IMG/VR virus record: IMGVR_UViG_3300045988_182204 | Reading direction: 5' to 3' (one strand) | DNA length: 52,672 nucleotides | Source of the DNA: a virus | Shown here: piece after piece, positions 2,209 to 52,672 of the stretch | Numbering within the stretch: position 1 is the first letter of the stretch | Layout: each line of letters begins with the position of its first letter | Position numbers and translations under genes: made by a program | Notes under the pieces: model-generated | Seen by the model: only the letters and a program-made list of their open reading frames with translations | Told to the model about the DNA's origin: nothing | Databases searched by the model: none

Positions 2209-2454
2209 ATGGCTATCAAGAGTAAAGCGCGGCACGATTTGACGCTGCGCAGTATCAAGCGGGAAATCGGCGCGGGACGGGACGTTGCGTTCTGGCTGGA
2301 CAAGGCGTACACGCATCTGGACAATGGATTACTGACAGAAGATGACATTGCCGAGGTGGAAGCACTGGCGCAGGAATACTACGATGCGCTGGACGCTGAA
2401 ACGGTGCAGGACGGCAACGCAACAGAAGCAGGTGAACCACATGAAAGTGTATGA
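2209..2454 (+). CDS. Hypothetical protein (81 aa), tail-fibre-associated position
   Basis: ORF with SD AAGGAG upstream; acidic C-terminus; no recognisable motif. Confidence 0.6.
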   Translation: MAIKSKARHDLTLRSIKREIGAGRDVAFWLDKAYTHLDNGLLTEDDIAEVEALAQEYYDALDAETVQDGNATEAGEPHESV

Positions 2455-2881
2455 TGACAAGCTCATGATGGAGCTCAAAGACTATGATCTGACAAAAGGC
2501 CACCTCGAGGATGCACAGATTGTTTCCAAGCATCATCCAGCAACTCCACGAAAATTTCATCTTGAAGTGATGCAGCACGATTCTATCTCTGGTCTTCGGC
2601 ATGAAGTAGAAGATTCTCCTGCTCGGCCAGCTTGGGATGAATATGAGGCAGTGAAAAGATATGTTCCCTATACAGATGAAGAGCTTGCTGCTATTGCAGA
2701 ACGCAAGAAGCAGGAGGAAGAGAATGCCAAAGCTGCTGAGGAAGAACTGAAGAAAGCTCAGGAAGAATATGAGAAGCAAAGCAAGGAAGAGGAAGCTCGT
2801 AGAGAGTTGCTCGATAAGATTGACGCTCAAGTTACCTATACTGCACTGCAGACAAATACATTGTTGCCAAGTGAGGAGTGA
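2443..2881 (+). CDS. Hypothetical coiled-coil protein (145 aa)
   Basis: ATG at 2443 after AGGTGA; Glu/Lys-rich coiled-coil segment (ERKKQEEENAKAAEEELKKAQEEYEKQSKEEEARR). The start is chosen inside track ORF 2342..2881. Confidence 0.55.
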
Positions 2882-2886
2882 TTGCT

Positions 2887-3021
2887 ATGAAAGAGAAAAT
2901 TGCTCGTTGGTATGACAGAGGCTGGTGGTCTGACGAGGCAGTGAAAGATGCTGTCGGAAAGCTCATCACTGCTCAGGACTATGAAGACATCACTGGCAAC
3001 AAGTACAAAGAGGTGAAGTGA
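2887..3021 (+). CDS. XkdX-family small phage protein (44 aa)
   Basis: MKEKIARWYDRGWWSDEAVKDAVGKLITAQDYEDITG matches the XkdX pattern (Y..G.W....V...V..G.IT..DY..ITG) as I remember it. It is below the ORF-track length cutoff. Confidence 0.6.
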   Translation: MKEKIARWYDRGWWSDEAVKDAVGKLITAQDYEDITGNKYKEVK

Positions 3022-3022
3022 C

Positions 3023-3463
3023 ATGGCTGATACAATGATATCTGCAGGTGGTGGGCTGTCAAAAACGAAGTTGGCACTTGCCAATGCTGCAGAATCCGAT
3101 GTGTTATCCGGAAAAAGATTCTATGCAGGAGACAAAATCATCAAAGAAGGGAGGATGCCAAATCGAGGCAGCTGGGAGGCATCGCTCTCCCCTGGAGGCG
3201 TGGTGACCATTCCCTCCGGATTCCACGATGGGAGCGGGAAGGTCACCGCTGTAAGTCTAAAAACAACGACAATTACCCTGGCTGCAAGCTCGATGTACTG
3301 GAGTTACACTTTTACGGGTGGCACGCTGGTCGGCATCTGCGACATCGCAGAAACTGCTTACAACAAGGAAATTGAGTACCTGCATATCAGTGGAAACACC
3401 ATTACCATGAAATGGAGTGGAAATGGTAGCATGTATCGCCAGATAACACTAATTTATTACTGA
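3023..3463 (+). CDS. Hypothetical tail-fibre-associated protein (146 aa)
   Basis: N-terminal ...AAESDVLSGKRFYAGDKIIKEGRMPNRG... resembles small structural proteins that accompany fibres in Firmicute phages; the call rests on position and memory only. Confidence 0.5.
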   Translation: MADTMISAGGGLSKTKLALANAAESDVLSGKRFYAGDKIIKEGRMPNRGSWEASLSPGGVVTIPSGFHDGSGKVTAVSLKTTTITLAASSMYWSYTFTGGTLVGICDIAETAYNKEIEYLHISGNTITMKWSGNGSMYRQITLIYY

Positions 3464-3583
3464 GAGAAGAGATGAAACCATGAAAGAGCCAATTATAATC
3501 AACACCGAGACAGATAAAGATGACTATTTTGTTTAAACTCTACATGGCATACTCAAAGTCTATACCCATGAAGGAACTGCTCT

Positions 3584-4954
3584 ATGCAAATTATAAAAGC
3601 TGTAAATCCTCGATTTGAAGAATTCCTATACGATTGGGACTATCGAACATATCTACTGGTCGGTGGGTATGGCAGTTCGAAGTCCTACCACATTGCATTA
3701 AAACTCATACTAAAATGCCTGACCGAAGTACGAAAAGTGCTTGTTGTGCGTGAAGTGTATGACACAATTCGTGAGTCTTGTTTTGACCTATTTCTTGAGA
3801 TCCTCGAAGATCTGGACATGCTTGGTGAGAGCCCAAGAGAGAAGAACAAGAAGGTTCTCTACAGAACCAGTCCAATGTCCTTATCTTTCCCCAATGGTTC
3901 CAAGATCATCTTCAAGGGTATGGACAAGCCAGCAAAGCTCAAATCCATCAACAACATCTCCATCATCTGGATCGAAGAGTGCTCTGAGCTGAAATATGAT
4001 GGCTACAAAGAGTTGCTTGGTCGTGCACGTCACCCAACACTGAGTATTCACTTCATCCTGAGCACCAACCCTGTTGGCATGGAGAACTGGGTGTACACTC
4101 ACTTCTTCAAGCGAGTTGACAGCGACGGTCAGCAGATTGTCATTCTTGACGATGAGCGCCTATACAAGATGAGAACCATCGTAAAGAATGGGGTCTACTA
4201 CCATCACAGCACTGTAGACGACAACTATTTCATGCCCAAGAGCTACATCAAGACTCTTGATGACATGCGGTCGTATGACCCAGACTTGTATCGAATTGCA
4301 CGTTGGGGACGATTTGGCTTGAATGGTCTTCGTGTATTGCCTCAGTTTGAGGTTGCTGACACCCATGAGGAAGTCATGAATGTTGTCTATGGCACGCCAC
4401 AGCGCTTTTTGTTCAATGGGTTTGACTTCGGTTTTGAGACTTCCTACAACGCAATTGTGCGTATGGCAGTTGACAATGAGAGGAAATACCTTTACATCTA
4501 CGATGAGTATTACAAGAACAGAATGACCGACCCAGAGACAGCCAAGGAGCTGACTGCTCTTGGGTACAAGCCTGAGTGGACTACAGGCACAAATGGTCGG
4601 ATGATACTCACCTATGAGGGTATTCCTTTGGTTGCCGATTGTGCTGAACCCAAGGCAATTCAATATTACAAGAATGAGGGCTTCCAAATTCGTGCTTGTA
4701 ATAAGTATGCTGGCAGTCGTCTTGAGAACACAAGAAAGGTCAAGCGATTCCGCAAGATCATTTGCTCTCCTCGATGCAAAAATACAATTCGTGAGCTTCA
4801 GACTTTGACCTATGCAAAGGACAACAATGGCAATCTCATTTACGATGAGTTCAACATTGACCCACATACGTTCTCTGCCATTTGGTATGGTCTGGACAAC
4901 TACAACGTGGCAAACATCAAGGAGATCAAGAGAGCTACAGTCAAGGGTGGTTAA
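3584..4954 (+). CDS. terL: Terminase large subunit (PBSX / Terminase_3-like)
   Basis: P-loop-like [13 protein letters not shown], Walker-B-like [11 protein letters not shown], 456 aa with a nuclease-like C-terminal half. Confidence 0.9.
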
Positions 4955-4966
4955 AGAAAATAAACC

Positions 4967-4995
4967 TTTACTTTTCGAACAGATAAGAGTATAAT
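4967..4995 (+). promoter_or_regulatory. Promoter (TTTACT-17-TATAAT)
   Basis: AAACCTTTACT...AAGAGTATAAT, upstream of the DUF4417 gene. Confidence 0.55.
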
Positions 4996-5015
4996 GAGGA
5001 TAGAGGTGATGAAAC

Positions 5016-5678
5016 ATGACCAAAGGTGAACGAGACTTCAACAACTTTCTTCTTACACCACTTGATATGCCAATGGAGGGCAAATATCATATGCCCATGA
5101 TCAAAGGCATGGTGATGAAGAATTTCAAGGCACCAGAAAATTTTGTAGAATTTCACAGTGCTACAAAAGTTCCAATGGAAAAGCGCAAAGACACAGTGGT
5201 GCATTTCTTTACACCTGACTTCCTGTTTGAGCGAGTGTGGTACCACCCAAACAAGAATCTGGAGTTCCTTCGGCAGTTCAAAGCTGTATGCAGCCCAAAC
5301 TTCAGTCAGTACACTGATATGCCCGTGGCTATGCAGATCTGGAACAGCTATCGCAGTAAATGGTTATCTGCTTGGTGGCAGATGAACGGTCTGCGTGTTA
5401 TTCCTACTGTGAATTTCAGTGACTCTGACAGTTTTGAGTACACCTTTGATGGGATTCCTCATCAGAGTCTGGTGATCATTTCTAGCCTGGGTGCTGAGAA
5501 AGAAGTTGCTGCTCGAGAAAACTTCTTCAATGGGTATCATAAAATGCTCGAAGTTCTTGATCCGAAGCAGATCCTGTTCTATGGCAACAAACCCCATTGG
5601 CTCGAGGGGAAGGACGCAAATGTGCTTTTCATTGCTCCGGCATACAAAGAAAGATTCGGAAAACTCAAAGAAAATTGA
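5016..5678 (+). CDS. DUF4417-like protein
   Basis: VHFFTPDFLFERVW...AVCSPNFSQYTDMPVAMQIWNSYRSKWLSAWWQMNGLRVIPTVNF matches the DUF4417 signature as I remember it. Confidence 0.65.
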   Translation: MTKGERDFNNFLLTPLDMPMEGKYHMPMIKGMVMKNFKAPENFVEFHSATKVPMEKRKDTVVHFFTPDFLFERVWYHPNKNLEFLRQFKAVCSPNFSQYTDMPVAMQIWNSYRSKWLSAWWQMNGLRVIPTVNFSDSDSFEYTFDGIPHQSLVIISSLGAEKEVAARENFFNGYHKMLEVLDPKQILFYGNKPHWLEGKDANVLFIAPAYKERFGKLKEN

Positions 5679-8956: not shown

Positions 8957-8969
8957 TTTCAAAATACTC

Positions 8970-8998
8970 TTTACATTTCTGTGCAGATGGAGTATAAT
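8970..8998 (+). promoter_or_regulatory. Promoter (CTCTTTACA-17-TATAAT)
   Basis: ATACTCTTTACA...GGAGTATAAT, upstream of the small Cys-rich ORF and scaffold gene. Confidence 0.65.
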
Positions 8999-9026
8999 AA
9001 AATAGAGTCTATTTGGAGGGTGTATT

Positions 9027-9212
9027 ATGAATCAAAGTCGTTGCAAACACGATGACTGCTTCACTTGTCCATATCCTGATTGTATTGCTGGAGTCACTCA
9101 TTTGAAAGGCGAAATGACTCCAAGAGATTATGACGGGAAGAAAGGTGGTTACACTCCAAAGCAAGGCTACAGACAGCCATACTGCTATATGGGACTCAGG
9201 GAAGATCACTGA
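9027..9212 (+). CDS. Small Cys-rich protein (61 aa)
   Basis: CKHDDCFTCPYPDCIAG; SD GGAGGG; lies directly downstream of promoter 8970-8998. Confidence 0.55.
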   Translation: MNQSRCKHDDCFTCPYPDCIAGVTHLKGEMTPRDYDGKKGGYTPKQGYRQPYCYMGLREDH

Positions 9213-9320
9213 TTTCATGCCTTGGCATGTTTTGATGGTTCGGTTCACCAGCTGGGCGAACAGAAATTCAAGCTGGAATTATGCACACCGGATGCACTTT
9301 TCCGGAGATAGGAGATCACA

Positions 9321-10007
9321 ATGCGAAAACTGACAATGTTTGGGAAGCCTATTTTGGTTATGCTGGCTCCTGATGGGGCTGGTGCACCTGCTGGTGGTGA
9401 GGGTTCTGGTGACGCTGGCGCAAACGGCACTGGTGCAAATTCCAGCACTGGCGATGGCTCTGGACAGGAAGGAAACAAAACCTTTACACAGGAAGACATC
9501 AATCGGATCGCTGCCAAAGAGAAAGCTGAGGGTCGTCGCGCTCTTCTCAAAGAGCTGGGCATCGAGGACACTGAGGATTCTCGAAATGCCATCAAGGCTT
9601 ATCTCACTCAGCAGGAGAACCAGAAGTCTGATCTGCAGAAAGCCAACGAACGAGCAAGCAAAGCTGAAAAGGCTCAGGCTGACGCAGAAGCCAATGCTCT
9701 GGCTATCCAGCGAAAGTATGATGCCCTGGCAGCTGGTGCAAAGGCAGACACCATCGATGACCTGATGGCTCTGGCAAGCACCAAGGTCAATGACAAGACG
9801 GACTTCAAAGCTGCTCTTGAGCAGGTGAAGAAAGCATATCCTGTCTTCTTCAATGAGGCTTCTCAGACAAGTACAGTTGGAACAGGGCGATCTACGAACC
9901 CTGCGAGAAACACCAATGGTCACCAGATGTCTATGGGTGAGCGACTGGCCAAGTCTCGTATGGGTAATACCCAAGCAGAAAATCCGTTCTTCAAGAAATC
10001 ATTTTAA
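9321..10007 (+). CDS. Scaffolding protein (DUF4355-like)
   Basis: Gly/Ala-rich N-terminus, then FTQEDINRIAAKEKAEGRRALLKELG and a long coiled coil; lies directly upstream of the capsid genes. Confidence 0.75.
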   Translation: MRKLTMFGKPILVMLAPDGAGAPAGGEGSGDAGANGTGANSSTGDGSGQEGNKTFTQEDINRIAAKEKAEGRRALLKELGIEDTEDSRNAIKAYLTQQENQKSDLQKANERASKAEKAQADAEANALAIQRKYDALAAGAKADTIDDLMALASTKVNDKTDFKAALEQVKKAYPVFFNEASQTSTVGTGRSTNPARNTNGHQMSMGERLAKSRMGNTQAENPFFKKSF

Positions 10008-10020
10008 GGAGGAATAAAAC

Positions 10021-10383
10021 ATGCTGAATCAGTCTGGCATCACAACCAAAACAGCAGTCACTCCAAAGAGTATTCTTTGGGCTCCGGAAAATGCCATTGC
10101 CTTCTCTTGTGTCATCGCAAAGAGCAAGAAACTGCTGGCTGGCACTCCAATCGCTGGTGATCTGACTGCCCGAAACACTGGCTTCACAGCTGCACAGACA
10201 ACTTCTGGTGCTTCCGATGCTGTGGGTCTGCTGCTGCACGAGGTCGATGCTTCTGGAGCAAAGCAGAATGGCACTGTTCTGGTCGCTGGCGTGGTAGACC
10301 TTAACAAGCTGGATTCTACCACTCAGGCACTGATCACCACAGAAGTCAAAGCTGCTCTGAAGCACATCATTTTTGTGAAGTAA
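10021..10383 (+). CDS. Putative head decoration / capsid accessory protein (120 aa)
   Basis: Small Ala/Gly/Thr-rich ORF between scaffold and major capsid genes; the call rests mainly on position. Confidence 0.45.
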   Translation: MLNQSGITTKTAVTPKSILWAPENAIAFSCVIAKSKKLLAGTPIAGDLTARNTGFTAAQTTSGASDAVGLLLHEVDASGAKQNGTVLVAGVVDLNKLDSTTQALITTEVKAALKHIIFVK

Positions 10384-10429
10384 AGTCTTTACAATAGTGT
10401 GACCAACAACCACAAGGAGGAATACACAT

Positions 10430-11482
10430 ATGACAATTTTTGAACTTGTCACTGCCAGTGAGCTGGTGGCGTATTGGAATACTATGGCCAATCAGCGTGG
10501 TCCATATCTGGGTGAGTCTCTGTTCCCCGCTCGCAAGAAGCGTGGCCTGAATCTGAAGTGGATCAAGGGTTCCAAGGGTCTTCCCGTCGTACTGAATCCC
10601 AGTGCCTATGATGCCAAGGTCAAGATCCGTGATCGCATCGGCTTCAGCACCGTTTCTACCAACATGCCATTCTTCAAAGAGGGTGTCCTGATCGATGAAG
10701 AGACTCGTCAGGAGCTGAACATGGTTCTGGAGACCAACAATCCCGCTTATGTGGATTCGGTCATGAACAATGTTTTCGACGACGAGACTCGACTGCTGGA
10801 TGGTGCTCGTGCCCAGCGTGAGCGCATGCGTATGCAGCTGCTGACCACTGGTTTGATTGCAATCAGTGCCAATGGCCAGGACTACAACTATGACTATGGC
10901 ATCCCCAGCACTCACAAGGTTCAGACTACCACTCCTTGGTCCAACCCTGCTGCCGACATCATGGGTGACATCAGGACCTGGCAGGATCTGATCGAGGACG
11001 AGACTGGTGTTCGTCCTACTCGTGCCATCTGTGATCGTGCCACTTTCAACTACTTCCTGAAGAACGATGCTATCATCAAGAGCAATTTCGTTCTGTCCAA
11101 CGGTCAGGCTGCTCTGAATGAGCCCATGGTTCGTCGCTATCTGCAGGAGAACCTGGGTCTGACTATTGAGGTCAACACCAAGAAGTTCGTTGATGAGGCT
11201 GGCGCCACCAAACCATTCATTCCTGCAAACACCTTTACCATGATCCCTGAGGGTGATCTGGGTAGCACTTGGTTTGGCACCACTCCTGAGGAATCTGACC
11301 TGATGGCTGGTCAGATCGGCAACAGCACTCAGGTTGCTATCACCGACACTGGTGTTGCCGTTGCTACACACGGTCAGTTCGACCCAGTCAATGTTGAGAC
11401 CAAAGTTTCCATGATCTGTCTGCCCAGCTTTGAAGCTGCTGACCAGATTATCATCGCCGATGTTTCTCACTCCGGTGAGTGA
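10430..11482 (+). CDS. Major capsid protein (capsid protein E-like family)
   Basis: 350 aa; N-terminal ELVAYWN...YLGESLFPARKKRGLNLKWIKG pattern; position after the scaffold gene. Confidence 0.85.
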   Translation: MTIFELVTASELVAYWNTMANQRGPYLGESLFPARKKRGLNLKWIKGSKGLPVVLNPSAYDAKVKIRDRIGFSTVSTNMPFFKEGVLIDEETRQELNMVLETNNPAYVDSVMNNVFDDETRLLDGARAQRERMRMQLLTTGLIAISANGQDYNYDYGIPSTHKVQTTTPWSNPAADIMGDIRTWQDLIEDETGVRPTRAICDRATFNYFLKNDAIIKSNFVLSNGQAALNEPMVRRYLQENLGLTIEVNTKKFVDEAGATKPFIPANTFTMIPEGDLGSTWFGTTPEESDLMAGQIGNSTQVAITDTGVAVATHGQFDPVNVETKVSMICLPSFEAADQIIIADVSHSGE

Positions 11483-24177: not shown

Positions 24178-24205
24178 TTCCCTCCCAATCGGGAGGGAAT
24201 TTTTA
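24178..24205 (+). terminator. Rho-independent terminator
   Basis: TTCCCTCCC-AATC-GGGAGGGAA followed by TTTTTA. Confidence 0.8.
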
Positions 24206-38693: not shown

Positions 38694-40628
38694 TCACCTC
38701 TTGAATTGTTTGAGAGTTACACCTTTCCAGCTTGCCTCTCGTGTCTTTGGATTCCTGTATTCAAGAAATCCAAGAGACCTCATGTTTCGAATGAATCCGT
38801 GCTTTTTGTGGCATTCGCGACCACTGCTCACACAGAATTGAGCATATGCTTCATAGAGAGCATCCTTGCCAATATATGCTTCTGGGTCTTTCTTGCACTT
38901 CTTCACAAGAAAGGCATGAATACTATCAGAGTCCTGGCGAAGACCCTCCACCATTCGATTGGAGCGCTCTGTACGAGGAATCGCTTCTACTGGCAGGAGA
39001 CTGAGTAGATACGGAATAATCTCTTCGACACTTTCTTCGCTGCAAAGGTCATTGACATATGCGTCGTTAAGGAATAGCTCGTGATTCATGTACAGAATTC
39101 GCATTCGTTTGTAGAATGCATTTGACTTCTCTTCAAGCTGAAGTGGGAGCTGGTTGAAAGAGAAGATCAGCTTGCAGAAAGGAACAAAGAAGAAAGGCTC
39201 TTTGCCTTTCTTTTCATGCATGATCTGGTCACCACCAGTGATCTTTTTTAAGTTCTCAATACTGCTCAATGGCAATGAACCATTATCACCACAAGAGTTC
39301 AGAAGTGTGTTATATAACTGAGCTGGATAGAATCGAGCACTGAGTTCATGCATACTCAAAGATGAGACATTTTCTCGCCCAACCATATTCTCAATGAATC
39401 GAAGCAAAACGGATTTGCCTGTATTGGACTGACCACAGAGGATCATGAAAGTTTTCAAGCCATAATTCAAGGTCAAACAATATGCCATGTACTTCAGAGC
39501 CATCTTGATATCTTCCTTGTTAAGGCAAGTCTTTTTGAAGAATTGATATAGTCTTGTATTCACAAAAGGAACGTATTCACCTACTTCGTGGGGGATTTGC
39601 AATGTCTGCAAATATTTGCTATCATGAGGAAGAAGCTTCCCTTGCTCAATATCCCAAACACCATTCTTAAAATTGATGAGATTATGATCCTTGTTAAGGT
39701 CTTTTGTCTCTTTTTGAAGTCGTGTATCATCAATGATCAAGCGGAAGCACTCCATGATTCTTGCCTGGGTGATCAAGCTATCCACCATAATCATATCACG
39801 AATTGTATTGCGAACATAACTGCTGGCTTCCTTGTATACACCTTCTTGGTAAAGGTATGCCTCTCCGCCCAAAACGAATATGTCGCCACGGTTTACAAAA
39901 TAATCACATATTGCTCGACTATTAACATTCACAGGGTGACCTTTGGTGTTGTAGATCAGATATGGATTGTCACCCTGCTCTTGGGCTTCATAGTTCTTTG
40001 TATTGCGAATTATCTTTTCGAGCTCTTCTTCTTCCATCGGCTGATCAAAAATGATGGTGTTGATGATATGAGCCATCTTGTCAATTTGATCATCGTTGGC
40101 ACCTCTGTTTTTATAGGCCATAAGGTGTGCAAAGAGAGTTGCGTTTCTGCCATCACCCTCCTTAAGACCGAGAAGAGATTCTCTTCTATTTGCCATTGGA
40201 GTGAATTCAAGAGGAAGATCCTCAATCACTCTGCAATTATTGAACTTTCGGTTTTCTGTACCCCAAGGAAGAATGACATAACCTTTGTTGGCACAGCGAA
40301 AATCACATTTAAGACCGCAAGGCAGTATCATGCCAATGCGCTGAGGAAAATCCTTGTTGGTCTTAAAGTAAAGGTGTAGACCCTTCGGGGTCTTACACAT
40401 TAGAGTTTTGAGGTGCATTTTGCGAACGACTTTGAGGGCTTCTTCTTTGCCCTCATCGATATCTACAATGATGTATCCTGTTCGCACCCACCAACCAATC
40501 TGCCCACCATTTTCAACATGAGCAGCTGCAGCTCTCTCGGGCACGATGGCAGTGTCAATACGCTTCTTTTCCATACAGCGCACATAACTATCCTGCCCGA
40601 TCAAGCTGTTAAACTCAGATAATTTCAT
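38694..40628 (-). CDS. Primase-polymerase / SF3 (D5/P4-type) helicase fusion
   Basis: N-terminal prim-pol-like GWWVRTGYIIVDIDEG; C-terminal P-loop FMILCGQSNTGKSVLL followed by a P4-family C-terminal region; 644 aa. Confidence 0.8.
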   Translation of the reverse strand: MKLSEFNSLIGQDSYVRCMEKKRIDTAIVPERAAAAHVENGGQIGWWVRTGYIIVDIDEGKEEALKVVRKMHLKTLMCKTPKGLHLYFKTNKDFPQRIGMILPCGLKCDFRCANKGYVILPWGTENRKFNNCRVIEDLPLEFTPMANRRESLLGLKEGDGRNATLFAHLMAYKNRGANDDQIDKMAHIINTIIFDQPMEEEELEKIIRNTKNYEAQEQGDNPYLIYNTKGHPVNVNSRAICDYFVNRGDIFVLGGEAYLYQEGVYKEASSYVRNTIRDMIMVDSLITQARIMECFRLIIDDTRLQKETKDLNKDHNLINFKNGVWDIEQGKLLPHDSKYLQTLQIPHEVGEYVPFVNTRLYQFFKKTCLNKEDIKMALKYMAYCLTLNYGLKTFMILCGQSNTGKSVLLRFIENMVGRENVSSLSMHELSARFYPAQLYNTLLNSCGDNGSLPLSSIENLKKITGGDQIMHEKKGKEPFFFVPFCKLIFSFNQLPLQLEEKSNAFYKRMRILYMNHELFLNDAYVNDLCSEESVEEIIPYLLSLLPVEAIPRTERSNRMVEGLRQDSDSIHAFLVKKCKKDPEAYIGKDALYEAYAQFCVSSGRECHKKHGFIRNMRSLGFLEYRNPKTREASWKGVTLKQFKR

Positions 40629-48011: not shown

Positions 48012-48536
48012 TCAAAATTTTTGCAGCTCCTGTCTCAGCTTCTTGATCTTGCGCCTGACATTGCACGCTGGAACGCCAATCATGCGAGATATAGCGCTGG
48101 CAGAATATCCTTTGATATGGAGCTTGGCAACTTTGAAAAAGACTGTATCACTTTTACATATATAGTGTATCTGGGTGTAGATGTCAGATATGGCATAGTC
48201 GTCCTGTGGGTCAGGGATGGTGCATTCGATAGGAATTGGAACTGGTTCTTCGTTGCAGATTGTGCTGTTAAGGCTGACCGTCGTTTGGACTTGTCGCTGT
48301 ACCTTGCGCCACTCCATACTGATTACATTAGACATGCATAAAAATGCAAATGAAGAGAACTTTCCTCTCTTGGGTTCATAGAAATGTGCTGCACGGCATA
48401 ATCCAATAGCACAGAGATCGTAATAGTCGTCAGACAGATTGTATTTGTTAAGGTATGAATAGATGAGATTATGGTTATTGGTGACAAGATCTCGCTCTTC
48501 ATCTGTGAGAGTGAATGGTTTCGCTGGTGAGTGCAT
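48012..48536 (-). CDS. Sigma-70-family RNA polymerase sigma factor (regions 2 and 4)
   Basis: Region 2-like DLCAIGLCRAAHFYEPKRGKFSSFAFLCMSNVISMEWRK; region 4 HTH IKGYSASAISRMIGVPACNVRRKIKKLRQEL. It is the first gene of the leftward arm. Confidence 0.8.
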   Translation of the reverse strand: MHSPAKPFTLTDEERDLVTNNHNLIYSYLNKYNLSDDYYDLCAIGLCRAAHFYEPKRGKFSSFAFLCMSNVISMEWRKVQRQVQTTVSLNSTICNEEPVPIPIECTIPDPQDDYAISDIYTQIHYICKSDTVFFKVAKLHIKGYSASAISRMIGVPACNVRRKIKKLRQELQKF

Positions 48537-48576
48537 AGACGGTTCCTCCGGTGTAAATGATATGAGTTTTGAGATA

Positions 48577-48605
48577 ATTATACTCGCAATATCGAAAAAA
48601 GTAAA
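48577..48605 (-). promoter_or_regulatory. Promoter of the sigma-factor gene (TTTACT-17-TATAAT)
   Basis: Minus-strand CACTTTACT...GCGAGTATAAT, about 40 nt upstream of ATG 48536. Confidence 0.6.
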
Positions 48606-48668
48606 GTGAAAAGAACAGAGAATGAATAAAAAATGGACTGAAAAATAAAAATCGGTAAAAATCGGTCT

Positions 48669-48797
48669 AAAAATCGGCGTAAAATTGCAGAAAATTTTCT
48701 AAAAATCGGTAATTTATTGCAGAGAATTCTTCAAAAATCGGCGGAAATTTTGACGGTGCATCGTTATCCTTATGCACAAAAAGTACGCCGATTTTTT
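48669..48797. repeat. ~130-bp composite repeat unit A (direct repeat of 48878-49006, 209-bp period)
   Basis: AAAAATCGGCGTAAAATTGCA...AAAAATCGGTA.TTTATTG...AAAAATCGGCGGA...TCGTTATCCT...TACGCCGATTTTT. The unit ends are inverted repeats of each other. Confidence 0.75.
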
Positions 48798-48877
48798 TCT
48801 TTTCCTCGCGTCTATAAACGGATCATGAAAAAAGTGAGAGCGTGTGCGAAAAGAGAAAATCCCGTGAAAACGAGTAT

Positions 48878-49006
48878 AAAAATCGGCGTAAAATTGCACT
48901 TGAAGTACTCAAAAATCGGTATTTTATTGGAAGAAAAGTTCAAAAAATCGGCGGACTTTTTTACGATATATCGTTATCCTATTGTAGAAAATTTACGCCG
49001 TTTTTT
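48878..49006. repeat. ~130-bp composite repeat unit B
   Basis: Aligns by eye with unit A over most of its length. Confidence 0.75.
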
Positions 49007-49078
49007 TATTTTAATATAAATAGAATTAGATAATATATAAAATAAAAATAAAAATAAAAATTTAATAATAAAAGGGTA
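49003..49078. other. Extremely AT-rich tract (candidate DNA unwinding element)
   Basis: TTTTTTATTTTAATATAAATAGAATTAGATAATATATAAAATAAAAATAAAAATAAAAATTTAATAATAAAA, lying between oppositely oriented iteron groups. Confidence 0.55.
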
Positions 49079-49547
49079 GAGAAGAAAAAAATCGGCCGGA
49101 TTTTTCTGCAATAAATTCACGAACTGTGCAATAAATTTTACGCCGATTTTTCAACTTTTCGGTCCAATTTTACGCCGATTTTTGAGTCATTTTTTCGGAT
49201 TTTATTGCACACAAAAATCGGTATTTCGCCGATTTTTCATAAAATTCTGAAAGTGAATTATTGCAAACTCATTTCAAAAGTTTTCGGAAGAGTAAAGAAA
49301 AAGTTTACTTGGGTGGAAAAAACGGAGTTTTTTATTGCAAAATTCTGTAACGATTTTTTACAATAAACTGAAAACTTTTGAATCTGCAATAACGAAGTAA
49401 AATAGACTGAAATTTCTGAAAATTTCTGCGTCGGTGTGAAAAGGTGGCGGAGCCATTTTTCGGGTATGCACCCTGGGCTTTTCCGTCAGAGACGGAGAGA
49501 GCTGGTAGAAATGGGTGTGGTGTAGTGTGCTTGGGTAACTGAAAAAA

Positions 49548-49576
49548 TTTACAATAGGAGATGATCGTATTATAAT
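49548..49576 (+). promoter_or_regulatory. Promoter of the rightward arm (TTTACA-17-TATAAT)
   Basis: Consensus-like -35/-10 with 17-nt spacing, 29 nt upstream of the terS ATG. Confidence 0.7.
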
Positions 49577-49599
49577 ATCTCTAAAGAGATATTATAATA
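49568..49599. promoter_or_regulatory. Perfect 15-bp inverted repeat (2-nt spacer) overlapping the -10 and 5' UTR of terS: candidate operator
   Basis: TATTATAATATCTCT-AA-AGAGATATTATAATA. Confidence 0.6.
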
Positions 49600-49604
49600 T
49601 TACA

Positions 49605-50351
49605 ATGACTGGTGGTGATATAGTGGGTGCTTTTAAGAAAATTGAGGGAAGAAAAGTCTATATTGACTTCACTTTCATCGTTGCTGAAAAAGACTCCTAT
49701 GAGCGCACAATGCGCGAGAACATGCGCAAGGTTCATGCCCGCAACAAGGCATTGAATTTGTTGTTTCCATATCAGCATCTCTTGGGCAAGCGCAGAATTG
49801 TTGAAACTCCTGAAGAAATGCAAGAGTTGTGTGACAAATACTTCGAGTCCTGTAATGGACCTTTACGAGACAAATGGGGCAATGCAGTCACTGACAAGGA
49901 AGGTCATGCAATTATTGTACAGATCAAGCCATACACTATTTCGGGTCTTGCAGCTGCCATTGGCATGAGTACAACAACGCTCAAAAACTATACTTATAAA
50001 AGTTTGGCAGGAACTGTGCATCCCGAGTTTTCCAATGTGATTATGACTGCTCGACAAAAAATCGAGCAATACAGTGAGGAGCAACTCTTCAATCGTGAGG
50101 GTGTGACTGGTGCTGAATTCATGCTGAGAGCTGGATTTCGATGGTCTACGAAGCAAGAGGAGATCGAGATGGCTCGCAATCTTGCAACGATCAAGAAGAT
50201 GCAGCAGGACTATGAATTGCAAAAGAGACAGCTCAAGATCAAGGAACGCCTCATTGAGGGTGAAGATGTTGGCGACAATCAGGTCGTGATCAACATTGTC
50301 CGTGCAAAGCCGAAGAGTAAGAGTAGTGAGGTGATCGATGATGACGAATAA
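49605..50351 (+). CDS. terS: Terminase small subunit (Terminase_4-like)
   Basis: ...ELCDKYFESC...KPYTISGLAAAIGMSTTTLKNY...IMTARQKIEQYSEEQLF...GAEFMLRAGFRW fits the HTH-containing small terminase pattern. The start is uncertain because no ATG has an SD. Confidence 0.7.
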   Translation: MTGGDIVGAFKKIEGRKVYIDFTFIVAEKDSYERTMRENMRKVHARNKALNLLFPYQHLLGKRRIVETPEEMQELCDKYFESCNGPLRDKWGNAVTDKEGHAIIVQIKPYTISGLAAAIGMSTTTLKNYTYKSLAGTVHPEFSNVIMTARQKIEQYSEEQLFNREGVTGAEFMLRAGFRWSTKQEEIEMARNLATIKKMQQDYELQKRQLKIKERLIEGEDVGDNQVVINIVRAKPKSKSSEVIDDDE

Positions 50352-50841
50352 CTGTTCATGTGGCTGCAATAATAATTACAATATCAATTATGAAAAAATT
50401 GCAACGTCAATGCAAACGAAAATCAGCCTTGCTGATCCAAAGGCAATTGTTCCAAAATATGCGACTTCTTGTTCTGCTGGAGCTGATATTTTTGCAAGGA
50501 TCGATGAGGAGATTACTGTTTGGCCAGGGACAAGAGCTTTGATTCCAACAAAGATCAAGATTGCAATTCCCGATGGTTGTTGTGGATTGCTCCTGGGTAG
50601 AAGTGGTCTTGCTCTGAAGTATGGAATCTGTTTGGCAAATGGTGTCGGGCTGATCGACTCTGACTATCGAGGAGAACTCGGTGTCATCTTGCAAAACAAT
50701 GGTGGTGAGCCATTCAAGGTCAAAGATGGCATGAGAATTGCCCAGCTTGTAATTGTGCAATATCAGCAAACGAGATTCAAACAGGATTCTCTCGATGATA
50801 CAATTCGTGGCCAAGGTGGCTTTGGCTCTACAGGTGTTTGA
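50338..50841 (+). CDS. dut: dUTP diphosphatase (trimeric dUTPase)
   Basis: All five motifs are present: SAGADI, GRSGLALKYG, GLIDSDYRGE, RIAQLV, RGQGGFGSTG. There is an unusual 24-aa Asn/Cys-rich N-terminal extension if the start is 50338/50341. Confidence 0.9.
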   Translation: MMTNNCSCGCNNNYNINYEKIATSMQTKISLADPKAIVPKYATSCSAGADIFARIDEEITVWPGTRALIPTKIKIAIPDGCCGLLLGRSGLALKYGICLANGVGLIDSDYRGELGVILQNNGGEPFKVKDGMRIAQLVIVQYQQTRFKQDSLDDTIRGQGGFGSTGV

Positions 50842-50850
50842 GGAGGCAAT

Positions 50851-52221
50851 ATGAAAGGTCTTTTCACAGGCAGAAATGCAATTCCATACAGGTATGGCTG
50901 TTATGGGTACACTCGCGGCGGTGGTAAAGTTTGGCACGGTGGTCAGGATGTTGTTGGTGAGGACAATGATGTCATTCATTTCCCCTACTATACATTTAAG
51001 GATGGCTCACAGAAAGCAATCACAGGCATTGTTCGTCAGGCTCGCATTGTAAAAGACAAGAGCAATAGGACATGGGAATGGGGATATTATGTGAGTGTGC
51101 AGCTTGATGCTAGCCAAACTCCTGATGCTGTTAACTGGCTGTACTTCTGTCACTGCTCCTCTCTGTTGGTTAAGGCTGGTCAGAAAGTCAAGAGCGGTGA
51201 TGCTCTGGCCATCATGGGCAATACAGGCAACGCTGCCCTCAATAATCCCCCATACAAACATTGTCATCTCGAAGTGCGTGCAACTGCTACGAGCAAAGGT
51301 TTGGATCCTACAGCATACTCTGGTCTGCCCAATAGTGTATGCTCTGTGAATATGCTGGGTGAAAGCAATAGCAACTATCTGGAAACACTGATTGATGTGA
51401 GCAAACATCAGGGCAAGATCGATTGGGCAAAGGTTCCATATAAAGCAATTGTGCGCGTTGGATATCGTGGCTATGGCAATGGACAGCTGATGAGAGATGA
51501 ACGATTTGAGGAGAATGTCAGAGGTGCTCTGCAGAACAACAAGCTCTTCGGATTCTATTTCTTCTCTCAGGCAATCACAACTGCGGAAGCAACGCTTGAA
51601 GCCGAATACGCTGTTGGGCTGATCAACACAATGACCTCTGGGCGTGGATATCCATTGTTCTTTGATGCCGAATGGAGTCATAGTGTACATGATGGCCGTG
51701 CCGACAAAATCAGTAAAGCCCAGCGAACTGCCTGTGCAAGAGCATTTTGTAAGAGAGCAACGGAGCTCGGCATGATCGCTGGTGTGTATACATTCACATC
51801 TTTCGTAGGTACAAATATTGATTATGAAGATCTGTGCAAAGACTATGTTGGGTGGCTTGCTGACTATCGTGCAAACTATGACAGGACACTTCCAAGGTAC
51901 ATTCATCAGTACACGAGCTCCGGTGTGGTTGCGGGCATCACAGGACATGTTGACATGAATCATCTGTTGAAAGCTCTGCCTGGTGCAAAAGACGAAGAAA
52001 AAGAAGAGGAAAAGCCTGTGAATGGGAAGTTACAGAAGCCAGTCATCTCTGGAGCGTCTGTGGAGAACGTGGAAGCGTTCCGAGAGCTGGCTGATAAATT
52101 ATCTATCTCGTTCGAAACGACCTCCACAGTGTCCTTCCAGGCGGTCTCACAGGGAGACGCAGACAAGATCCTGGCTCTTTCTAAAAAGTTGGGACTGAAA
52201 TATACAAGTTCTTGGGTGTGA
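50851..52221 (+). CDS. Endolysin: M23 peptidase + GH25 muramidase + C-terminal domain
   Basis: M23 motifs WHGGQDVVG and KHCHLEV. GH25-like IDVSKHQGKIDWAKV...VRVGYRGYGNG...FFDAEW. A Glu/Lys linker precedes a ~70-aa C-terminal domain. Confidence 0.85.
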   Translation: MKGLFTGRNAIPYRYGCYGYTRGGGKVWHGGQDVVGEDNDVIHFPYYTFKDGSQKAITGIVRQARIVKDKSNRTWEWGYYVSVQLDASQTPDAVNWLYFCHCSSLLVKAGQKVKSGDALAIMGNTGNAALNNPPYKHCHLEVRATATSKGLDPTAYSGLPNSVCSVNMLGESNSNYLETLIDVSKHQGKIDWAKVPYKAIVRVGYRGYGNGQLMRDERFEENVRGALQNNKLFGFYFFSQAITTAEATLEAEYAVGLINTMTSGRGYPLFFDAEWSHSVHDGRADKISKAQRTACARAFCKRATELGMIAGVYTFTSFVGTNIDYEDLCKDYVGWLADYRANYDRTLPRYIHQYTSSGVVAGITGHVDMNHLLKALPGAKDEEKEEEKPVNGKLQKPVISGASVENVEAFRELADKLSISFETTSTVSFQAVSQGDADKILALSKKLGLKYTSSWV

Positions 52222-52233
52222 GGTGATAAATAC

Positions 52234-52672
52234 ATGCAAACAATTACATTGAAAGGTTATGGGACAAATATTCCTCCCTATGAGGCCATAGAGCTTGGCA
52301 CTTATGACAGTTATGGAGTTGAACAACTACAAATCGTGCCATCTCATGGATGGGAGAATCTTTCGATCATTGCCTCTTTCTTTCCACCTTCTGGTGCTGA
52401 GCCTATCAAAGTTGCAGTATTATCTAGTGGAATTATCGATGTTCCTCCAGGAGCAACTGCAAAGCAATCAGGAAAAGGCATTATTGTATTTGCTGGCTAT
52501 AAAGCAAATACTCAACTGATCTCTACAAATGTTGCCTATAACATCAGGGATCACAAAGATATTGCGTCTGGTGATCCTGTGTGCCCAACTCCAAGCGTTG
52601 TAGACCAAATTATGAACGCTGCAAAGGCTGCTCAGGAAAATGCAGAAAAGGCAGCAGGCAGTGCAAAAAAAG
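52234..52672 (+). CDS. Tail fibre protein, 5' part (gene continues across the junction to 2195)
   Basis: ATG at 52234 follows GGTGA. The ORF is open to the window end and in the same frame as ORF 6..2195 once the 99-nt overlap is collapsed. The full gene is 52234..52573 plus 1..2195, about 844 aa. Confidence 0.8.
   Translation, partial: MQTITLKGYGTNIPPYEAIELGTYDSYGVEQLQIVPSHGWENLSIIASFFPPSGAEPIKVAVLSSGIIDVPPGATAKQSGKGIIVFAGYKANTQLISTNVAYNIRDHKDIASGDPVCPTPSVVDQIMNAAKAAQENAEKAAGSAKK
52574..52672. repeat. Terminal duplication (copy of 1-99)
   Basis: Exact 99-nt repeat of the window start. Confidence 0.95.

Follow-up and report, generated by a model that had tools for sequence, protein, structure and literature searches.

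The early and late arms of an uncultured gut phage part at a region that contains no gene. The window analysed here is the whole 52,672-nucleotide stretch of DNA; the genome is a 52.6-kb circular assembly with an end overlap of 99 bp. An earlier reading, made from the sequence only, had described a gene-free region at the divergence of the early and late arms. This is borne out: the region lies between the divergent sigma-factor gene and terS, which is of the GP3_package type.

48012-48536, minus strand: sigma-factor gene, left border of the non-coding region
48537-49604, no strand: non-coding region, with the sigma-factor gene on one side and terS on the other
49605-50351, plus strand: terS, right border of the non-coding region

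Rfam gives no match in 48537-49604 in either mode, and a DNA search against cultured phages gives none. Gene calls are recorded for the relatives L005-L008, and none of them places an ORF within the iteron arrays.

The region contains a dense set of short iterons. The core AAAATCGG occurs in 14 exact copies in the window against 1.4 expected, a count reached in none of 100 shuffles; all 14 lie within 48648-49236, ten forward and four reverse. The 9-mer AAAAATCGG is found 14 times inside the region and never outside it. With up to one mismatch, it is found 18 times in the 1.07-kb region versus nine times in the other 51.6 kb; these matches include a degenerate copy at 48998. In total, the array comprises 14 exact and about four degenerate iterons, in both orientations, around an AT tract. 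The sequence-only reading had placed iteron cores in opposed orientations, and the exact copies fall at the positions it gave; the degenerate reverse copy that it saw near 48997 is the one recovered at 48998.

48647-48678, plus strand: left end of the array, with three direct iterons (AAAAATCGG) spaced 10-12 bp
48669-48797, plus strand: composite unit A, with direct iterons at 48669, 48701 and 48733 and 32-bp phasing
48878-49006, plus strand: composite unit B, which repeats unit A at a distance of 209-210 bp downstream
49007-49078, no strand: AT-rich tract of 72 bp, 93% A+T, the proposed DNA-unwinding element
49087-49183, minus strand: right-hand inverted unit, with minus-strand iterons at 49143 and 49175, 32 bp apart
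49213-49237, no strand: tight inverted iteron pair AAAAATCGGTATTTCGCCGATTTTT, 14 bp start to start

Two composite units of about 130 bp had been proposed, and 48701-48802 and 48911-49012 are indeed 75% identical at a spacing of 210 bp. Inside the units, direct iterons are phased at 32-33 bp. In unit A an inverted iteron at 48788 closes the third direct iteron, 53 bp away; unit B has iterons at 48878, 48911 and 48943, with its degenerate inverted copy at 48998. The right-hand unit also has a plus-strand iteron at 49087, which overlaps a degenerate inverted copy at 49097. The tight inverted pair is found in L005 too. The DNA between inverted iterons shows no conservation among relatives, and the 'ATCGTTATCC' spacer is restricted to close ones. 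The AT tract has ten iterons on its left and at least six on its right. Described earlier as a central A/T tract, it exceeds every other site of the genome in AT content: of all 70-bp windows genome-wide, the eight highest in A+T start at 48986-49021.

It is likely that the 48648-49236 array is the phage replication origin, of the iteron/AT-tract/iteron type of self-loading SF3 primase-helicases. An origin at this locus had already been suggested, and the suggestion survived all tests run: iterons in both orientations flank the AT-richest tract, and the layout is conserved in relatives. A comparison of iterons across related phages, proposed earlier as a check, finds direct iteron runs closed by an inverted one, then an AT tract and opposed iterons, in 15 of 17 related loci. 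In 15 of the 17, the iteron array contains the most AT-rich 60-bp window found at that locus. The layout survives changes of the core to AAAAATAGG, AAAAATTGG or AAAAATAGTC.

Cumulative GC skew, another check proposed earlier, has its minimum at about 46-48 kb and its maximum at about 24-25 kb; the profile flips at the locus and fits an origin at the non-coding region, but it is confounded by transcription direction. The polarity of the motif CCTTAAC had been taken as a sign of bidirectional replication. It also flips at the locus, but neither this polarity nor the skew is independent of transcription, because all genes are co-oriented with the presumed forks.

At the level of sequence comparison, it is the primase gene that the iterons are shown to accompany, rather than terS or the sigma factor. 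One related phage (L141/L166/L168) has identical AAAAATCGGCGTAAAA iterons and an AT tract, and its primase, 67% identical, lies in a syntenic replication module. It has a terS of another family (phrog_309 vs phrog_606), and no window-type terL, portal or structural protein is detected in it. This natural module swap, with an identical iteron beside a different terS family, rules out terS as the repeat reader. In other relatives the iteron core is kept where the primase is 71-87% identical and terS only 31-48% identical. The sigma-factor homologue is 31-37% identical or undetectable in relatives which keep the iteron core.

Among the initiator candidates named by the sequence-only reading, the primase-helicase is retained, with its C-terminal winged helix, while the sigma factor and the DUF2786 protein are dropped. 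No sigma-factor homologue is detectable in the iteron-bearing L017, L020-L023 and L009. The DUF2786/DUF7168 protein is rejected as a required reader: it is absent among the genes of the 18-kb early/replication arm of L168. Evidence from sequences and structural models points to the C-terminal winged helix of the primase-helicase as the candidate initiator.

38694-40628, minus strand: primase-helicase, 644 aa, with PriCT_1, D5_N, DUF5906/SF3 helicase and a C-terminal winged helix
38697-38924, minus strand: RFX-type winged-helix C-terminal domain, residues 569-644, with the wing at 622-639
38733-38735, minus strand: wing residue A632, which co-varies with iteron position 7

Homologues of this protein carry the JGI label 'P4 family phage/plasmid primase-like'. 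The primase gene itself has no non-coding gap next to it. The best solved relative is 7OLA, PriRep5 of SaPI5 (phmmer E 1.7e-16); the alignment ends at residue 614, short of the wing. An AF2 model of residues 501-644 is a winged helix with block pLDDT of 81-90. The best Foldseek matches to the C-terminal model are RFX 1dp7, the C-terminal domain of ASFV PrimPol, and Orc1/Cdc6. For the RFX DNA-binding domain 1dp7, the probability is 1.0 and TMt 0.73, with an rmsd of 2.5 A over 73 columns; Pfam RFX_DNA_binding gives a sub-threshold match at residues 570-619. 7OLA is absent from the top 50 Foldseek matches to the domain model, and 1ka8 is absent among the matches listed. The C-terminal winged helix of PriRep5 binds iterons oppositely disposed around an AT-rich region, and its wing reads the major groove (PMC9371898; bioRxiv 10.64898/2026.10.17.759575). 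In RFX, both helix 3 and the wing contact DNA (PMC2777425).

Residue 632 of the wing and base 7 of the iteron change together, with at least two to three independent switches seen in the sequences; this relation is correlative only. In every locus checked, alanine at 632 is found with iterons AAAAAT-C/T-GG or AAAAGT-C-GG, and tyrosine with AAAAAT-A-G. Put in terms of the wing, all of the about 20 loci where both wing and iteron are known pair ..REA.W with a C or T, and ..R/K-x-Y-x-W with an A, as the seventh iteron base. Predictions made from the residue alone held in three of three cases (L219, L201/G013 and L216/G012). The recognition-helix positions His/Ser and Leu/Gln were also considered as trackers of iteron class; both are broken by L178, and only wing position 632 held. 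On a tree of the primase body, with the C-terminal domain left out, the trait needs at least two changes, or three counting the later-scored L216. A single clade of the TAGG rows is rejected (p-AU 3e-69). A sign test on the switches gives p = 0.5 with two pairs, which are too few for significance. Co-inheritance could mimic a functional link because the array and the primase gene share an 8-kb early arm.

From these observations we infer binding, melting, helicase loading and bidirectional forks at the array. The primase-helicase would use the beta-hairpin wing of the RFX-type winged helix at its C-terminus to bind the AAAAATCGG(CG) iterons. It would assemble on both sides of the 72-bp AT tract and then melt it. 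The enzyme would load itself and prime synthesis; forks would run outward, co-directional with both transcription arms, to converge near 24.9 kb.

The region also contains elements that suggest a role in transcription.

48541-48552, minus strand: GGAGG ribosome-binding site on the sigma-factor side
48577-48605, minus strand: leftward-arm (sigma-factor, early) promoter-like site, TTTACT-17-TATAAT, 10/12 matches
49107-49392, no strand: second motif TTATTGCA, six of the region's seven copies; the seventh is at 48714
49442-49480, plus strand: double hairpin, then T runs, just upstream of the terS promoter; conserved
49548-49599, plus strand: terS (rightward-arm) promoter, TTTACA-17-TATAAT

Promoters had been predicted at the two edges of the region, and consensus-like sites are present at both (10/12 on the minus strand; 11/12 on the plus strand, at 49548-49576). 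A perfect 15-bp palindrome at 49568-49599 overlaps the -10 hexamer of terS and is conserved. The window contains 11 copies of the second motif, TTATTGCA; seven lie at 48714-49392 and one at 24203, in keeping with the earlier description of a motif family in the region and upstream of the promoter at about 24.2 kb. It is specific to the lineage of the window. In the double hairpin, three pairs are preserved despite changes on both sides; the structure could be a terminator or insulator, and whether it is part of the origin is uncertain.

These elements allow readings in which the locus does more than, or something other than, start replication. A coupled replication-transcription switch is rather unlikely: here origin firing would gate late (packaging/structural) transcription, and the tandem 130-bp units would act as a P4-crr-like cis enhancer via DNA looping. 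Helicase loading on units A and B and the inverted unit, between the early and late promoters, could be one component of such a switch. The lineage-specific TTTATTGCA, which is also found upstream of the late promoter at about 24.2 kb, the putative double-hairpin insulator and the palindrome at the terS -10 could be others.

It is less probable still that the array is purely a platform for transcription control, where a regulator other than the primase (the sigma factor, a SpoIIID-like, Spo0A_C-like or other protein) switches the divergent promoters. The array does lie between two consensus promoters, TTATTGCA is enriched at the array and also found at 24203, upstream of another promoter, a conserved palindrome covers the -10 hexamer of terS, and the phage encodes both a sigma factor and a SpoIIID-like HTH protein. 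However, the proposed regulators are not kept with the iterons: a sigma-factor homologue is undetectable in several iteron-bearing lineages, a SpoIIID-like homologue is found among relatives only in L016 and, weakly, in L017, DUF2786 is not among the L168 genes seen, and the small early proteins adjoining the array are not conserved. A pure operator array needs no AT tract, whereas in 15 of 17 lineages the AT-richest tract has iterons on both sides. The iteron base also varies in step with a residue in the wing of the primase-helicase.

A packaging recognition site (pac or cos) is a more distant prospect, which we consider very improbable. A terS of the GP3_package type follows the array at about 370-960 bp, and a position before terS is typical of pac or cos and differs from that of SaPI origins. 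The array is directly upstream of terS in most relatives, even beside the unrelated terS of L141, and a ring-shaped oligomer would fit the phasing of 10-12 bp and 32 bp. Several public contigs also break inside the array, among them 171166 and 181833; G007 is without the array. Against this, the same iteron is found beside a terS of a different family: L141 terS matches that of the window by BLASTP with E 0.019 over 50 residues, and the PHROG differs. Among lineages sharing the AAAAATCGG core, terS N-termini fail to align. Two minus-strand genes intervene between the array and terS in L009/L010, and more distant terS relatives of the GP3_package type lack an array of this kind. Contig ends are ambiguous as a proxy for physical genome ends, and the breaks are better explained by repeats or extreme AT content; at least one broken contig, 171166, is a cut circle with overlapping ends. 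A theta origin dependent on the host initiator DnaA, or a plasmid-like partition site, with host or ParB-type proteins as readers, is extremely improbable: there is one perfect DnaA-box match (TTATGCACA, at 48770, in the unit A spacer) and the direct and inverted iteron sets resemble some centromere-like sites, but TTATNCACA is not enriched (four in the window vs 2.4 expected, one in the region), the spacer carrying the box is not conserved in relatives, no ParA or ParB-type match is found among about 30 proteins scanned, and the iteron changes with a phage protein and not a host protein.

With the array read as an origin for the primase-helicase, a likely origin and a likely initiator can be named for a large gut and environmental phage family without a cultured member (698 primase clusters at 90% identity). 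The natural variants offer a testable part of a recognition code, Ala/Tyr versus C/A, for RFX-type winged helices in self-loading helicases; this fits the 2026 structures of PriRep5 with its ori, where the major groove is read by the wing. The array accounts for assembly breaks upstream of terS in phages of this family. Possible uses of the array are ori-cloning, tests of origin-titration resistance in laboratory strains, and metagenome-based estimates of replication rate. The closest named record by protein is Bajarodcaudo virus 5 (38% identical), whose divergent non-coding region, about 9 kb from its terS, contains an AT tract together with different repeats; this parallel is only suggestive because the helicase C-terminus differs.

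Several known systems share parts of this arrangement. In SPP1 pac and lambda cosB, terS-binding repeats lie upstream of the small terminase gene, phased and in more than one orientation. The array shares with them its position directly upstream of terS and its phased repeats; it differs in that its repeats do not track terS, flank the AT-richest tract and co-vary with the primase-helicase. The RFX DNA-binding domain (1dp7) is the closest structural match of the C-terminal model. RFX itself is a eukaryotic transcription factor and the sequence identity is 16%; the likeness is one of fold and DNA-reading mode, not of function.

The alpha protein of P4 shares the combination of primase, SF3 helicase and C-terminal winged helix, but its primase is DnaG-type, in contrast to PriCT_1 and D5_N here. 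P4 has octamer iterons in both orientations, and its crr consists of two direct repeats of about 120 bp, each with several iterons; this layout is similar to that of units A and B. P4 has its ori and crr at separate sites with kilobases in between, whereas the array here is a single block.

The likeness to SaPI5 extends to both protein and DNA. PriRep5 (7OLA/7OM0) also joins a primase, an SF3 helicase and a C-terminal winged helix in one protein; the wing is its base-reading element, and the co-varying residue here is also in the wing. The SaPI5 ori likewise has short iterons in both orientations, inverted pairs and a central AT-rich region (about 100 bp, compared with 72 bp here). SaPI origins span about 300 bp, with 6-12 iterons of 5-7 bp, immediately downstream of rep (PMC9371898; bioRxiv 10.64898/2026.10.17.759575). 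In contrast, the array here spans about 590 bp, has about 18 iterons whose core measures 9-11 bp, and is found where the early and late arms diverge, at 8.0-8.6 kb from the point where the primase gene starts; it also has two tandem units of about 130 bp and 32-bp phasing. A position immediately downstream of rep is not seen here, and is a feature of SaPI layout, not of mechanism. The elements themselves differ: SaPI5 is a satellite, while this is a lytic-looking phage of 52.6 kb. Overall, the array is very probably an origin of a known type, and its mapping is new for this large family of phages.

The two gene arms of the phage genome diverge at 48537-49604, a non-coding gap packed with iterons. 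The assembly is circular at ~52.57 kb (~52,573 bp), with window ends 1-99 and 52574-52672 identical over 99 bp; an ORF open at the 3' end runs on into one open at the 5' end, and the product is a collagen-like repeat protein. The gap has no Rfam match, and no gene is called within the iteron arrays of relatives with recorded gene calls (L005-L008; L and G numbers denote related phage contigs or loci). The features of the gap, its flanks and the proposed initiator are as follows.

38694-40628, minus strand: primase-helicase, 644 aa, with PriCT_1, D5_N and DUF5906/SF3 helicase domains
48012-48536, minus strand: sigma-70-family gene, left flank of the gap
48605-48577, minus strand: consensus-like promoter, left gap edge
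48647-48678: three iterons at 10-12 bp spacing, left edge of the array
48669-48797: composite unit A, direct iterons phased 32-33 bp, with an inverted copy 53 bp off closing the third
48878-49006: composite unit B, with the same phasing and likewise a closing inverted copy 53 bp off
49007-49078: AT tract, 72 bp, 93% A+T
49087-49183: right-hand unit, opposite orientation
49213-49237: tight inverted iteron pair
49442-49480, plus strand: double hairpin, GGTGGCGGAGCCATTTTT then CGGGTATGCACCCTGGGCTTTT, a T run after each, just upstream of the terS promoter
49548-49576, plus strand: consensus-like promoter, right gap edge (terS)
49568-49599: perfect 15-bp palindrome, TATTATAATATCTCT / AGAGATATTATAATA, overlapping the terS promoter's -10 hexamer
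49605-50351, plus strand: small terminase gene terS (GP3_package), right flank of the gap

The sequence-only reading had described an iteron family, two ~130-bp composite units, a central AT tract and a second motif; motif counts and repeat comparison recovered each element in its place. AAAATCGG occurs in 14 exact copies in the window (1.4 expected), 10 forward and 4 reverse, all confined to 48648-49236. The 9-mer AAAAATCGG has 14 copies inside the array region and none outside; with one mismatch allowed, there are 18 inside and nine outside. Ranked by AT content, the top eight 70-bp windows of the entire genome all start at 48986-49021. The second motif, TTATTGCA, has 7 of its 11 window copies inside the region. 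This TTTATTG(C)A family lies at 48714-49392, plus one copy at 24203, and is enriched only in arrays of the window's clade (the window, L005, L007, L008, L016 and L017); among the other arrays checked, those of L141, L213, L229 and L009 show no enrichment.

Comparison of the iterons in related phages had also been proposed. In contigs gathered via terS homologues, the array is found in all closer relatives, and its plan is kept farther out. AAAAATCGGCG is kept where terS is 94-99%, 79% and 60-64% identical; the iterons of more distant relatives are AAAAATCGGT / AAATCGTCG, AAAAATAGGCG, AAAAATAGGTAT, AAAAATTGGCA, CAAAAGTCGG or CAAAAATAGTC. The constant plan is direct iteron runs with a closing inverted iteron, then the AT tract, then opposed iterons. 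Inverted iteron pairs recur at 43-65 bp separation, with no sequence conservation in the spacers. Taking each locus over its full 10-52 kb, the 60-bp window with the highest AT content falls inside the array in 15 of 17 cases.

Several public assemblies of close relatives break in or next to the array: L001/L011 (IMGVR 3300045988_171166), whose contig ends overlap within units A and B, L003/L013 (3300045988_181833), L015 and L019/G007. In G007, at 97% completeness, precisely the array region is missing. The likely reason for these breaks is the array's repeats or its 93%-AT stretch, and not physical genome ends. The nearest named phage, L239 (PQ006096.1, Bajarodcaudo virus 5), has a 905-aa primase-helicase (2339-5053) that is 38% identical, with basic F-[ND]-F-K-G-V-R-K-P-like repeats at the C-terminus in place of the window's winged helix. 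Where its arms diverge, ~9 kb from terS, it has a 1.4-kb repeat-rich gap with an AT tract (8968-10437); the repeats (AATTTCGC.A..., GTATACA) differ from those of the window.

The iterons are linked to the primase, not to terS or the sigma factor. TerS is the obvious rival reader because of its position beside the array. However, in lineages with the common AAAAATCGG core, terS is just 31-48% identical and the N-termini fail to align; more distant GP3_package terS genes are without such an array; and in L009/L010 two genes lie between the array and terS. The strongest evidence on the reader comes from a natural module swap. L141, found by exact 16-mer search, carries the same iteron, AAAAATCGGCGTAAAA, and an AT tract beside a terS of another family (phrog_309 vs the window's phrog_606; BLASTP E 0.019). 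The terL, portal and structural proteins of the window type were looked for in the L141 phage and none was detected. Its longer contig (L166/L168) shares with the window a syntenic block of replication genes for MazG-like protein, primase-helicase, PolA, PD-(D/E)XK nuclease and AAA_24 ATPase; the genes seen in this replication arm do not include DUF2786. The primase-helicase there (643 aa) is 67% identical to the window's over the N-terminal 483 residues.

The sigma factor was set aside as the reader, no homologue being detectable in the iteron-bearing L017, L020-23 and L009/10; among the more remote relatives, L005, L007, L008 and L016 have one with just 31-37% identity. Small early genes adjoining the array are not conserved in relatives.

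The primase-helicase keeps 71-87% identity across lineages with terS at 35-40%. Its C-terminal ~115 residues evolve fastest (55-68% identity vs 68-80% for the remainder), and residues 565-619 give sub-threshold matches to RFX_DNA_binding and Pox_D5. An AF2 model of residues 501-644, built from 38 sequences, has the pattern helix, strand, helix, helix, beta-hairpin (block pLDDT 81-90 over residues 571-640). Its best Foldseek match is the RFX DNA-binding domain 1dp7 (probability 1.0, TMt 0.73), with the ASFV PrimPol C-terminal domain and archaeal Orc1/Cdc6 bound to origin DNA among the other top matches. The closest solved relative of the protein is SaPI5 PriRep5 (7OLA, E 1.7e-16), a self-loading helicase (PMC9371898). 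In the 2026 PriRep5 cryo-EM structure the wing reads bases in the major groove while a helix touches the minor-groove backbone (bioRxiv 10.64898/2026.10.17.759575); the RFX wing likewise contacts DNA (PMC2777425).

Wing and iteron core were tabulated for those of 65 IMG/VR primase loci whose 10-kb flank reached the array. The wing R-E-A-[S/C/A/Q]-W pairs with AAAAAT-C-GG (the window, L174/175, L188, L209, L229, L168 and L201), as does GEAIW in L226; an Ala wing also pairs with AAAAAT-T-GG (REAQW; L212/213/217) and AAAAGT-C-GG (L221). R/K-[E/D/K]-Y-x-W pairs with AAAAAT-A-G (L178, L180, L181, L184, L191, L193, L215, L219, L225, the L020-23 group and L216). There are no exceptions in ~20 loci. 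The covarying residue in the window is A632, first of the second wing strand, between invariant R630 and W634. In three cases the iteron base was predicted from the wing before looking at the DNA: TAGG for L219 (REYCW; five TAGG copies found), TCGG for L201/G013 (REACW; four TCGG copies found) and A at position 7, the base after AAAAAT, for L216/G012 (KEYIW; ten copies of CAAAAATAGTC found, surrounding a 90%-AT tract). On a tree from primase residues 1-560, which omits the C-terminal domain, the TAGG rows are rejected as a single clade (p-AU 3e-69), and residue and base each need two changes, on the same branches (three including L216, scored afterwards). A sign test on independent pairs gives p = 0.5, the pairs being too few to reach significance; the covariation is thus predictive and consistent without being statistically conclusive. 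An earlier candidate, covariation of the recognition helix, broke down once more sequences were added.

Beyond the observed anatomy and conservation of the array, the fold, the iteron-primase linkage and the residue-base covariation, a mechanism can be proposed. Primase-helicase protomers would bind iterons via the wing and, as has been suggested for SaPI Reps, assemble on both flanks of the AT tract; the protein would then melt the tract, self-load and prime. Forks from ~49.0 kb would travel co-directionally with all genes and come together close to where the arms converge, at ~24.9 kb, so that the replichores would measure ~24 and ~28 kb. Cumulative GC skew is lowest at ~46-48 kb and highest at ~24-25 kb; these extremes fit an origin here, and CCTTAAC polarity, previously taken as support for one, also fits the model. 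Because every gene is co-oriented, both signals are inseparable from transcription.

Two further elements on the terS side may insulate or gate late transcription. The double hairpin has equivalents in L004, L005, L007, L008 and L016, with three base pairs kept despite changes on both sides (GGGT/ACCC vs GGAC/GTCC). It could terminate or insulate transcripts that come out of the origin; alternatively, a small RNA begun near 49335-49364 could have its 3' end here. Relatives also keep the palindrome, L016 by way of a compensatory change (TATACT...AGTATA); it resembles an operator at which a dimeric protein would gate the late arm.

Gene content around the gap varies. The terS-to-terL cargo (window 50338-52221 on to 3584) differs among the window, L005, L007 and L008: the window and L005 have dUTPase, M23 and/or GH25 cell-wall hydrolase and a large ORF (collagen-like in the window), L007 just a 50-aa NrdD-like fragment, and L008 a collagen-repeat protein. 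Between sigma-factor gene and array, the plus strand of L005 (4718-5081) and L007 (4443-4994) has one or two small ORFs (49-111 aa) without a Pfam hit; the window lacks them. Spo0A_C-domain (PF08769) proteins are found in the early arm of L005 (890-1252), L006 (188-688) and L007 (2400-2801), with no match among the window early-arm proteins scanned. Together with the sigma factor and a SpoIIID-like HTH protein, they point to a sporulating Firmicute host.

The locus probably belongs to an already known origin type, that of SaPI Rep-ori and P4 alpha-ori/crr, and works alike; the defining features open to testing are found here. It differs in that 8 kb separate the array from the initiator gene, that it sits where the early and late arms diverge, and that its iterons, phased at 32 bp, are grouped in two composite units of ~130 bp in tandem; it is also ~2x as long as the SaPI ori. 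Unlike these satellites, the window is a 52.6-kb lytic-looking phage with hypermodified-DNA genes.
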